Sequence record: PV778520.1
Reading direction: 5' to 3' (one strand)
Origin: Escherichia phage RCIP0359
DNA length: 59,541 bases
Each line of letters opens with the position of its first letter. Positions within the stretch are counted from its first letter, which is position 1. Below, piece after piece: positions 57,548 through 58,986 of the stretch. The translations under genes were made by a program, and so were the position numbers. The notes beneath the pieces were generated by a model, which saw nothing but the letters and a program-made list of their open reading frames with translations, made no database searches and was not told where the DNA came from.

Positions 57548-57985
57548 ATGGCACTTCAACCTCGTGGTATTCGTAATAACAATCCAGGCAATATTCGCTG
57601 GGGTGACAATTGGCAGGGCTTAGTTCCTGCTGATAAGCGGACCGATAAATCTTTTGCACAATTTACGCAACCGATCTACGGCATCCGCGCTCTGGCGAAA
57701 GTCCTGACCAACTACACCAAACGTGAAGGCTTGCCCAATGTGGGTAAGAAAAACATCGACACTGTACGTGAAATTATCTCTCGCTGGGCTCCGCCTAACG
57801 AAAACGATACGGAAGCGTATATTCGTTCTGTTGCCAAAGCAATTGGTGTTGAACCTAACGATCCAATCAATGTCTTCGACAAGACGATAATGTCAGGTTT
57901 GGTGAAAGCAATCATTCGTCATGAAAATGGCATGATGCCTTATACTGATGACGTAATCGACCGCGCTATTGCAATGGTAATTTAA
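57548..57985 (+). CDS. hypothetical protein; endolysin candidate by position only
   Basis: 145 aa from ATG 57548 (RBS GGAGGA); no recognised catalytic motif; adjacent to holin; separated from it by a terminator. Confidence 0.35.
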   Translation: MALQPRGIRNNNPGNIRWGDNWQGLVPADKRTDKSFAQFTQPIYGIRALAKVLTNYTKREGLPNVGKKNIDTVREIISRWAPPNENDTEAYIRSVAKAIGVEPNDPINVFDKTIMSGLVKAIIRHENGMMPYTDDVIDRAIAMVI

Positions 57986-57990
57986 CTGAT

Positions 57991-58010
57991 GGGGCGTCAG
58001 CCCCTTTTTA
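57991..58010 (+). terminator. intrinsic terminator
   Basis: GGGGC-GTCA-GCCCC followed by TTTTTATT. Confidence 0.6.
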
Positions 58011-58021
58011 TTGGAGGGAAC

Positions 58022-58366
58022 ATGTTCAACTCATCAAACGAACATTGGGCAGTTCTAGCGGGGTTTGCTCTGATTTCCCTCATTGGGGGAGCTCTCGGTT
58101 ACGTCATGCGCACAATTGACGCTGGTAAGAAAGTACGGTTAAGCATTGCATGTCTTGAAGGCTTATCCGCCGCGTTCTTTGGCGTTATAATGTACGCGAT
58201 CTACAGGGAGTTTAATATCAGCCTTTGGTTCGCTTTTGGCCTTGCTGGCCTATTTGCTTGGGCGGGTTCACGTGCTACGCTAAAAGCTCTAAAGTCGCTT
58301 CTAGCATCGCGGACAGGGATCAAACTCGACTCAGAGGACTGCAAACATGAAAATGATTCTAAATAA
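58022..58366 (+). CDS. putative holin (three TM helices)
   Basis: 115 aa from ATG 58022 (RBS GGAGGG); three hydrophobic helices, charged C-terminus; directly upstream of Rz/Rz1. Confidence 0.5.
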   Translation: MFNSSNEHWAVLAGFALISLIGGALGYVMRTIDAGKKVRLSIACLEGLSAAFFGVIMYAIYREFNISLWFAFGLAGLFAWAGSRATLKALKSLLASRTGIKLDSEDCKHENDSK

Positions 58367-58823
58367 CTTCTTCAGTTTTATAAAAGCTAAACCGCGTCTA
58401 TTTATCGAGTACCTGATGATTGGCGCGGTGGTGTTTTTATGCGGAGTGGCCGCCTATCTGTGGTCACAGAACGAGCTTAACAAATCAAATTTAAGTTTGG
58501 CTGAAGAACGTTTAACCGTTGTGGAGAAAGACAATGCAAAGCTGGGCGAGGCTGTTGTATTTCTTGCTGCACAGAGGGAGAAGGACACGGACTCTTTCAA
58601 GAAACTAACTTCTGCAATTCAGGACGAACAACATAACCACAAGTTGCTTCAGGACAAGTTGCAGACATTGGAGAAAAGCAATGCCGACGTCAAAGCTTAT
58701 CTTAACGAGCGTATTCCTGATGATTTGCGCAGGCTGCTCGACGCAGACTCAACCTCCCCCAGCTCCACAGATAGTGAAGGTAAGACTACCCGCGCATCTA
58801 CTGGTGGAATGTCGGGAAGTTGA
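58347..58823 (+). CDS. Rz: i-spanin (Rz-like)
   Basis: 158 aa; N-terminal TM helix then coiled-coil-like periplasmic region; Rz1-like ORF embedded/overlapping. Confidence 0.6.
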   Translation: MKMILNNFFSFIKAKPRLFIEYLMIGAVVFLCGVAAYLWSQNELNKSNLSLAEERLTVVEKDNAKLGEAVVFLAAQREKDTDSFKKLTSAIQDEQHNHKLLQDKLQTLEKSNADVKAYLNERIPDDLRRLLDADSTSPSSTDSEGKTTRASTGGMSGS

Positions 58824-58986
58824 GAAAATTCCTTTGGTTTACACAAGAGATATTATCCGACGTTTACAGGATACAGAAACTGCTCTGACTGAATGTAAGC
58901 TAAGGGTTAAGGAAATCATACGCTATGAAGCTGAAAATGTTTCGCTTGATTTTGTAGGATCAAGCAATTATATTCAGCCTAAATAG
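58681..58986 (+). CDS. Rz1: o-spanin (Rz1-like lipoprotein)
   Basis: 101 aa in +1 frame starting inside Rz; signal peptide with lipobox-like ICAGC followed by Pro-rich stretch; RBS GGAGA. Confidence 0.6.
   Translation: MPTSKLILTSVFLMICAGCSTQTQPPPAPQIVKVRLPAHLLVECREVEKIPLVYTRDIIRRLQDTETALTECKLRVKEIIRYEAENVSLDFVGSSNYIQPK

Follow-up and report, generated by a model that had tools for sequence, protein, structure and literature searches.

Endolysins of the Enc34/PHA02564 type, whose muralytic activity and structure were published between 2020 and 2022 (PMC7143992, PMC8943055), have been characterised biochemically in Hafnia phage Enc34 and Salmonella phage BSPM4. They form the background for the lysis cassette described here, which lies at positions 57548 to 58986 of Escherichia phage RCIP0359 (sequence record PV778520.1). 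The window that we analyzed is this whole stretch of 59,541 nucleotides, an entire Seuratvirus (Queuovirinae) coliphage genome of about 59.5 kb whose record was opened at terL. The Enc34 endolysin's catalytic domain is muralytic on E. coli, P. aeruginosa and H. alvei with permeabilised outer membranes; it has an all-helical fold akin to the alpha-lobe of lysozyme, in which Glu131 has been proposed as the catalytic residue and Trp79 and Tyr95 as further important residues (PMC8943055). Muralytic activity was shown with Enc34 ORF39deltaC and with M4LysdeltaTMD, the latter derived from M4Lys of phage BSPM4, and muropeptide analysis of M4Lys pointed to N-acetylglucosaminidase activity. Both enzymes are toxic and holin-independent when over-expressed because they carry a C-terminal transmembrane domain, and both are encoded beside a holin gene and overlapped spanin genes.

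Three other systems bear on this locus. In phage CSP1, Kim and Ryu took CSP1_091 for the endolysin and CSP1_092 for the holin, cloned both and co-expressed them in E. coli; CSP1_093 is the spanin of that cassette (PMC13577005). The antiholin set CSP1_020-022 suppressed lysis, dissipation of the proton motive force restored rapid lysis, and over-expression of the holin overcame the suppression while over-expression of the endolysin did not; CSP1_021 is the candidate for the holin-binding antiholin (PMC13577005). In T4 gene e, early read-through transcripts hide the lysozyme start in a structure, and late promoters located inside that structure give translatable mRNA (PMC3014915). Finally, in lambda the pR'-tR' region lies upstream of the lysis genes S-R-Rz.

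The original prediction for this locus recognised a holin and a spanin pair but no endolysin, and pointed to a 145-aa protein as the only adjacent candidate. We confirmed the four open reading frames (ORFs) of the cassette, all on the + strand, at 57548-57985 (145 aa), 58022-58366 (114 aa), 58347-58823 (158 aa) and 58681-58986 (101 aa). Our account of the cassette, of lysis and of its regulation, which as a whole we hold with high confidence, is that these genes make up a complete holin-endolysin-spanin cassette of a Seuratvirus coliphage and that the 145-aa protein is an Enc34-type endolysin. The identity of the enzyme and the composition of the cassette are well supported, and the transcriptional and translational steps are ones that we infer. 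Both the cassette and the endolysin are already known. The only feature of the cassette that seems unusual is the predicted burial of the endolysin ribosome-binding site in a hairpin, which we regard as a modest lead.

Identity of the endolysin

The 145-aa protein gave no match in scans of Pfam or NCBIfam, which explains why no motif was seen in it at first. The absence of a recognisable motif holds for these two libraries; it does not hold for PHROGs and the PDB, where the matches are strong. The protein matches PHROG 873 (phrog_873), annotated "endolysin", with E 2.4e-63, and its residues 5-130 match PDB entry 7Q47 (Hafnia phage Enc34 endolysin, catalytic domain) with E 2e-33. An AlphaFold2 model (mean predicted local distance difference test score, pLDDT, 86.6) consists of five helices and no sheet, and a Foldseek search with this model returned 7Q47 as the sole significant PDB match (TM-score 0.78, probability 1.00). 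In the HMMER alignment Enc34 residues Glu131, Trp79 and Tyr95 correspond to E126, W80 and Y91 (the chain numbering of PDB 7Q47 is +1 relative to the Enc34 paper). Across an alignment of 43 homologues with 55-86% identity, E126 and Y91 are invariant, W80 is conserved in at least 90%, and an N-terminal R-G-x-R-N-x-N-P-G-N-I motif is conserved as well. The choice of this protein as the endolysin candidate was therefore right, as judged by phrog_873, 7Q47 and the conserved Glu, Trp and Tyr, and the suggestion of a novel endolysin family gives way to membership in one that is already described. By homology the protein is predicted to degrade peptidoglycan, probably as an all-helical glycosidase resembling the lysozyme alpha-lobe with Glu126 as the catalytic acid.

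Compared with Enc34 ORF39, the catalytic domain is homologous (about 40-43% identity in the structural alignment) and the RGIRNNNPGNI motif is kept, and the arrangement of the endolysin gene beside a holin and overlapped spanins is that of the Enc34 and M4Lys cassettes. The difference lies in the transmembrane domain at the C-terminus of ORF39 and M4Lys, since the protein of RCIP0359 is the bare 145-aa domain. It contains no hydrophobic segment (maximum 19-residue hydropathy, KD19, 0.78), and its hydrophilic N-terminus, MALQPRGIRNNNPGN, lacks the weakly hydrophobic transmembrane helix of signal-anchor-release (SAR) endolysins. With neither a transmembrane nor a SAR segment, it should be a soluble, classical cytoplasmic endolysin that depends on a hole-forming holin for its release. 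This stand-alone form amounts to a minimal soluble Enc34-type domain, and it should be easier to produce than its membrane-anchored relatives for enzybiotic use.

The original prediction also allowed that the 145-aa protein is not muralytic and that the true endolysin comes from a novel family or from a gene elsewhere, such as that of the C39-like peptidase at 56070-56495, and the lack of a Pfam or NCBIfam match would fit this. We searched the rest of the genome with Pfam in two scans, one of the concatenated translations of 86 ORFs ending before 55201, a greedy selection of the longest with a minimum of 60 aa (E <= 0.01), and one of nine ORFs near the cassette (E <= 0.1); shorter or overlapped ORFs fell outside both scans. 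The families seen among the 86 ORFs were those of terminase, portal, tube, tape measure, tail tip, deazaguanine synthesis and replication, and none of GH24, GH19, GH25, GH108, SLT, Amidase_2/3, Peptidase_M15/M23, CHAP or NlpC/P60 was found in the scanned ORFs. The profile search that had been proposed thus located no canonical muralytic Pfam family, and no other muralytic domain, outside the 145-aa gene in these ORFs. The 141-aa C39-like ORF does have an N-terminal Q..C motif, but its match to Peptidase_C39 is sub-threshold (E 0.037 over 23 residues), its matches to PDB sequences are at chance level, and it lies outside the cassette among the small upstream genes; we rejected it as the endolysin. 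Set against the homology in sequence and fold to a solved and active domain, with all three proposed catalytic residues kept, and against the use of a 99.3%-identical CSP1 orthologue as the endolysin in lysis assays (PMC13577005), an endolysin elsewhere in the genome is extremely improbable.

The protein search at E <= 1e-5 returned 5,124 family members, so that the apparently missing endolysin reflects a gap in the coverage of Pfam and NCBIfam, neither of which models this widespread domain (> 5,000 homologues). The names given to the members vary among "structural protein P5", "virion protein", "capsid protein" and "endolysin", and many public records still use one of the first three kinds of name for proteins of the 145-aa type. 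These names, together with the occurrence of the same domain inside large virion proteins (the tail injection transglycosylases of phrog_7182, the tape measure proteins of phrog_2276, the head proteins of phrog_992 and the 1295-aa Gp29 of PDB 9vvp), would suit a virion-associated peptidoglycan hydrolase that acts in DNA entry rather than in lysis. Such a role is very unlikely for the 145-aa protein: it is a stand-alone domain with no attachment module, its gene is immediately 5' of the holin and spanin genes in all relatives, many homologous loci in IMG/VR have a small ORF with hydrophobic segments after it, and the CSP1 orthologue served as an endolysin together with the holin. Moreover, the name "virion protein" traces to the provisional CDD label PHA02564, and near-identical orthologues of the 145-aa protein carry the label "endolysin" in GenBank.

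Two points weigh against the identification of the 145-aa protein as the endolysin. Both biochemically characterised relatives have the C-terminal transmembrane domain that it lacks, and its own activity is a prediction from sequence. In addition, CSP1_091 is equated with the 145-aa gene by way of the gene order, the three-gene offset in numbering to CSP1C_088 and the description of CSP1_092 as a protein with three transmembrane domains.

In the GenBank record of phage CSP1C (PQ202980.1, locus L002 in our set) the product names appear to be shifted by one gene: the holin ORF of 114 aa is called "endolysin", Rz is called "holin", an 86-aa ORF "HslV" and the true endolysin "hypothetical protein". 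In the Nonagvirus HdK1 (L229, 1-409) the annotation of the gene upstream of the PHA02564 endolysin likens it to the N-terminal part of a phage JenK1 "lysin"; at this position Seuratvirus carries an ORF of 86 aa. Outside the cassette, the minor tail protein at 14035-14619 (DUF6950, PF22262, E 1e-37) has a GENDCC motif that recalls cysteine peptidases of the NlpC/P60 kind; it may act at entry as a wall hydrolase carried by the virion, and it is not an endolysin candidate.

Holin, spanins and remote antiholin genes

The 114-aa protein encoded at 58022-58366 (+) is a LydA-like holin, probably of class I with three transmembrane segments. It scores 38.9 bits against the LydA holin model PF16083 (holin superfamily III, cut-off 28.4) and matches the holin family phrog_785 with E 5.5e-24. 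Its hydropathy profile has two strong segments, at residues ~9-29 and ~39-60, and a weaker third one at 66-82, followed by a C-terminal tail rich in K, D and E. This profile fits the published prediction of class I for CSP1_092, which is 99.1% identical, and upholds the earlier description of a three-helix holin. A longer version of 125 aa starting at 57989, as annotated in KY982929, was rejected: the ATG at 57989 lies inside a hairpin and is ACG in 5 of 6 relatives, being common only to the window and CSP1/CSP1C. Since this ATG is not conserved, we place the holin start at 58022.

The two genes that follow encode a spanin pair. The 158-aa product of 58347-58823 (+) is a probable i-spanin of the Rz/LysB type with an N-terminal transmembrane segment (residues ~18-40 by hydropathy); it matches phrog_89 with E 3.5e-11 and scores 32.6 bits against the LysB model TIGR03495, under the cut-off of 92.75, and the position of its gene and the overlap with Rz1 fit an i-spanin. 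The 101-aa product of 58681-58986 (+) is an Rz1/LysC-like o-spanin lipoprotein that passes both the LysC model PF23793 (45.3 bits, cut-off 27) and the P2_Rz1 model NF038368 (29.2 bits, cut-off 27), and all six relatives that we examined share its signal peptide and the lipobox LMICAG|C. Rz1 begins within Rz in another frame and stops 163 nt past the Rz stop, so that the architecture is overlapped and not embedded. Both members of the predicted pair are thus present, and of the two terms that had been used for them "overlapped" is correct and "embedded" is not. As in P2 and lambda, an inner-membrane-anchored coiled-coil protein is combined with an outer-membrane lipoprotein read from an alternative frame. 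The P2 LysB/LysC genes are also overlapped and the window Rz1 passes the curated LysC/P2_Rz1 models, although Rz scores beneath the curated LysB cut-off; in lambda, by contrast, Rz1 is embedded in Rz.

Several public records carry a truncated o-spanin. The annotated protein has 50 aa in CSP1 (L001, 3335-3487) and 61 aa in CAjan and WildeMaa (L005 and L008, 1802-1987), and these short versions lack the signal peptide and lipobox, while the full 101-aa ORF with LMICAG|C is kept in all relatives. Within the stretch where the two genes overlap, Rz1 is more conserved than Rz (91% vs 80% identity to CAjan).

The CSP1 cassette is essentially the same system as that of the window, with protein identities of 99.3% for the endolysin, 99.1% for the holin, 99.4% for Rz and 100% for Rz1. 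The two phages differ in the tail-fibre gene (18091-21177, the homologue of CSP1_020), which is only 84.5% identical. The homologues of the three genes that come after the CSP1 tail fibre are found at 21349-23042 and are 100%, 98% and 99% identical, so RCIP0359 probably carries this antiholin set too, at a site remote from the cassette. The first of them (21349-22056, +, located by tblastn, 100% identical) is presumably the homologue of CSP1_021, as judged by the gene order and by a single Gly-rich hydrophobic segment. From these similarities, RCIP0359 may show the same turbid-plaque lysis suppression as CSP1.

Another small ORF with a holin- or pinholin-like shape is located at 56558-56743, about 800 nt upstream of the cassette and between the C39-like and HslV-like ORFs. 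It encodes 61 aa with two strongly hydrophobic segments and a basic C-terminus, and its relatives are annotated as hypothetical.

A predicted hairpin over the endolysin start

The endolysin gene is preceded by a predicted 20-bp hairpin at 57490-57552 (+), in which the 5' arm (57490-57510) pairs with a 3' arm (57532-57552) that holds both the Shine-Dalgarno (SD) sequence GGAGG (57535-57539) and the endolysin AUG (57548-57550). The minimum free energy of the leader is -29.8 kcal/mol (z = -3.5). We used the cost of unpairing positions -15 to +5 of a gene start, called the opening energy, to compare this ribosome-binding site with the others of the genome. At 23.0 kcal/mol it ranks first of 96 gene starts (median 6.0, standard deviation 3.9), while the starts of holin, Rz and Rz1 require 3.4-5.3 kcal/mol. 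No further copy of the leader that would make it a repeated late-promoter element was found in the window, and an Rfam scan of 55000-59541 gave only a chance-level snoRNA match.

To compare leaders across phages we collected those of homologous endolysin genes from IMG/VR and divided them by the identity of the endolysin to that of the window, with 14 distinct leaders at 64% or more and 93 others. The median opening energy is 15.5 kcal/mol in the first group and 5.7 kcal/mol in the second (p 9e-8). The leaders with high opening energies come from Seuratvirus, from Nonagvirus, from an Enterobacter lineage of EC151-like phages and from a Klebsiella lineage of vB_Kpn2-P2-like phages; in these four lineages the leaders are unrelated in sequence, yet in each a strong hairpin takes the SD into its 3' arm. 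In the Nonagvirus and Klebsiella lineages the hairpin runs into U5-6 directly ahead of the AUG and is terminator-like. In phage slur01 an HNH gene is inserted upstream, and a different 5' arm again pairs with the SD.

A promoter-like motif, TTGCGC-N18-TACCCT, is located at 57486-57515 (+), with a predicted transcription start site at about 57521-57523, inside the leader hairpin. The general form TTGNNN-N17/18-TANNNT occurs at a fixed distance from the AUG in 13 of the 14 leaders and in 1 of the 93 others (Fisher p 5e-13; background 0.00136 per nt per strand), and the single bearer among the 93, L092, belongs to the EC151-like lineage (lineage B of our set). This motif is relaxed and was found by inspecting the sequences, and positional enrichment was the only test applied to it. 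In the leaders that contain it the predicted start falls between -29 and -23, inside or after the 5' arm, and the opening cost of a transcript beginning there would be 7.5 kcal/mol in the window and 2-10 kcal/mol in the related leaders.

A second, smaller hairpin with the sequence GGGGC-GTCA-GCCCC followed by T5 stands at 57991-58009 (+), between the endolysin stop and the holin SD. The terminator-like hairpin that had been noted between the 145-aa gene and the holin gene is thus real as a sequence feature: six relatives down to 82% identity (CSP1, CAjan, Greed, slur01, WildeMaa and STP-SP5) retain its stem and T-run, while the loop varies among GTCA, GTTA and TTCG. By count, terminator-like sites in the region are at chance level (4 found, 4.0 expected). 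This hairpin probably stops or attenuates transcription ahead of the holin gene.

Taken together, these features suggest the following order of events. The cassette would open a rightward late block (lysis genes, terS, terL and structural genes) directly after the small rightward genes, the part upstream of the endolysin gene presumably being early. Transcripts reading through from upstream would fold the 20-bp hairpin and hide the endolysin SD and AUG, so that in Seuratvirus and the EC151-like lineage they would be untranslatable for the endolysin, and in the Nonagvirus and Klebsiella lineages they would be terminated too. The weak sigma-70-like promoter embedded in the hairpin would yield an mRNA with a short leader, translatable because the 5' arm is missing, and the soluble Enc34-type glycosidase would accumulate in the cytoplasm. 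Transcription past the weak hairpin at 57991-58009 would serve the gene of the LydA-like holin and, after it, the genes for spanins, terminase and structural proteins. An antiholin of the CSP1_021 type would restrain the holin, which would eventually trigger, permeabilise the inner membrane and let the endolysin reach the murein, and the overlapped Rz/Rz1 pair would disrupt the outer membrane last. The timing of lysis would probably be modulated by the remote genes homologous to CSP1_020-022. In its general form, the proposal is that the endolysin gene marks the early/late boundary in four lineages of ~60-kb phages and is guarded by a promoter inside a hairpin, and that in Seuratvirus the second hairpin uncouples the endolysin from the holin and late genes in a checkpoint resembling lambda pR'-tR', implying a step of read-through or antitermination. 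We offer this tentatively, as a proposal whose chance of being correct falls a little short of even.

The nearest parallel is T4 gene e, and with it soc, gene 49 and I-TevI. The likeness consists in the sequestration of SD and AUG in transcripts derived from upstream, which is predicted in the window. It may extend to the T4 promoter in the DNA of the 5' strand, whose own transcripts cannot form the hairpin, since the window has a promoter-like motif in a corresponding position. The differences are that the phage family and the endolysin family are unrelated to those of T4, that the window motif is sigma-70-like (TTGNNN-N17/18-TANNNT) and not the T4 late promoter TATAAATA, and that in the Nonagvirus and Klebsiella-phage lineages the hairpin also carries a terminator-like U-run. 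If the proposal is true, the solution of T4 gene e, a lysozyme kept silent on early transcripts, would have arisen independently in an unrelated group of siphoviruses. The arrangement of hairpin plus promoter is absent from the Seuratvirus literature that we examined for lysis, in which no search was aimed at the arrangement itself, and we treat it as a lead, not a result. The likeness to lambda pR'-tR' lies in the lysis genes heading the late operon with the terminase genes next, and in the terminator-like hairpin shortly after a putative promoter. The window differs in having the endolysin gene between the promoter-like motif and the hairpin, in the order endolysin to holin and, unlike lambda, in that no Q-like antiterminator was identified in it.

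The leader may instead not be a translational switch at all, acting as a conserved promoter or activator site, as an RNase III or mRNA-stability element, or as a means of constitutively low translation, and to this we give a substantial chance, about two in five. Within Seuratvirus the primary sequence of the leader, including the loop, is near-invariant beyond the needs of base pairing: the 82-nt spacer (57466-57547) differs from that of Salmonella phage STP-SP5 at 2 positions in ~75 nt, as compared by eye, although the overall identity of that phage is merely 82%. Long near-perfect stems are typical RNase III substrates, which the leader stem would suit, and the formal covariation signal is weak. 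Against a leader of this kind, burial of the SD recurs in the other lineages with sequences that are unrelated, the 5' arm of slur01 was built anew after the HNH insertion, and the position of the motif is in every case such that the 5' arm would be missing from the predicted transcript.

Other observations also count against the switch and checkpoint proposal. The model is built on predicted RNA folds and on a weak promoter consensus, with TACCCT as the -10 element, which a standard promoter scan did not report at its thresholds. A cross-lineage alignment with MAFFT and RNAalifold recovered only 5 pairs, those of the SD/anti-SD core; the hairpins are out of register between lineages, so this run is no valid proof of covariation. 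The terminator stem at 57991-58009 has only 5 bp, and if it were an efficient terminator the holin and late genes would need read-through or antitermination, for which no factor was identified. Promoter activity, translational repression and terminator function are put forward here as predictions.

Genomic setting and neighboring genes

The region around the cassette (57000-59541) shares 98.7% nucleotide identity with Escherichia phage PLYYY01, 97.5% with Cronobacter/Escherichia phage CSP1, and 92-94% with CAjan, Greed, slur01 and the Seuratvirus isolates of the BASEL collection. A single rightward block of + strand genes begins near 51300, continues past the window's end and reaches as far as about 23000, and the lysis genes are located at the switch from the small upstream genes to terS, terL and the structural genes. 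The holin and spanin genes directly precede the terminase genes, as had been stated. The 5' part of terS (59007-59541, +) is annotated as terminase small subunit at the same position in CSP1 and WildeMaa; its final ~23 nt are found at the start of the window because the record was opened at terL. The terL gene itself (1-1560, +) matches PF03237 (Terminase_6N) and is collinear with terL of WildeMaa.

Among the small rightward genes upstream of the cassette, 55201-55593 encodes a YspA/SLOG-domain protein (PF10686, E 5e-18) and 56740-57204 an HslV-like peptidase (phrog_1040, E 5e-32). Elsewhere in the genome, an antisense site between tail-tip and tail-fibre genes is typical for superinfection-exclusion lipoproteins in small siphoviruses, and the - strand at 17776-18009, between the genes of the J-like tail tip and of the lateral tail fibre, encodes a 77-aa lipoprotein (MKRALIMLALTLSLTAC...) in antisense.

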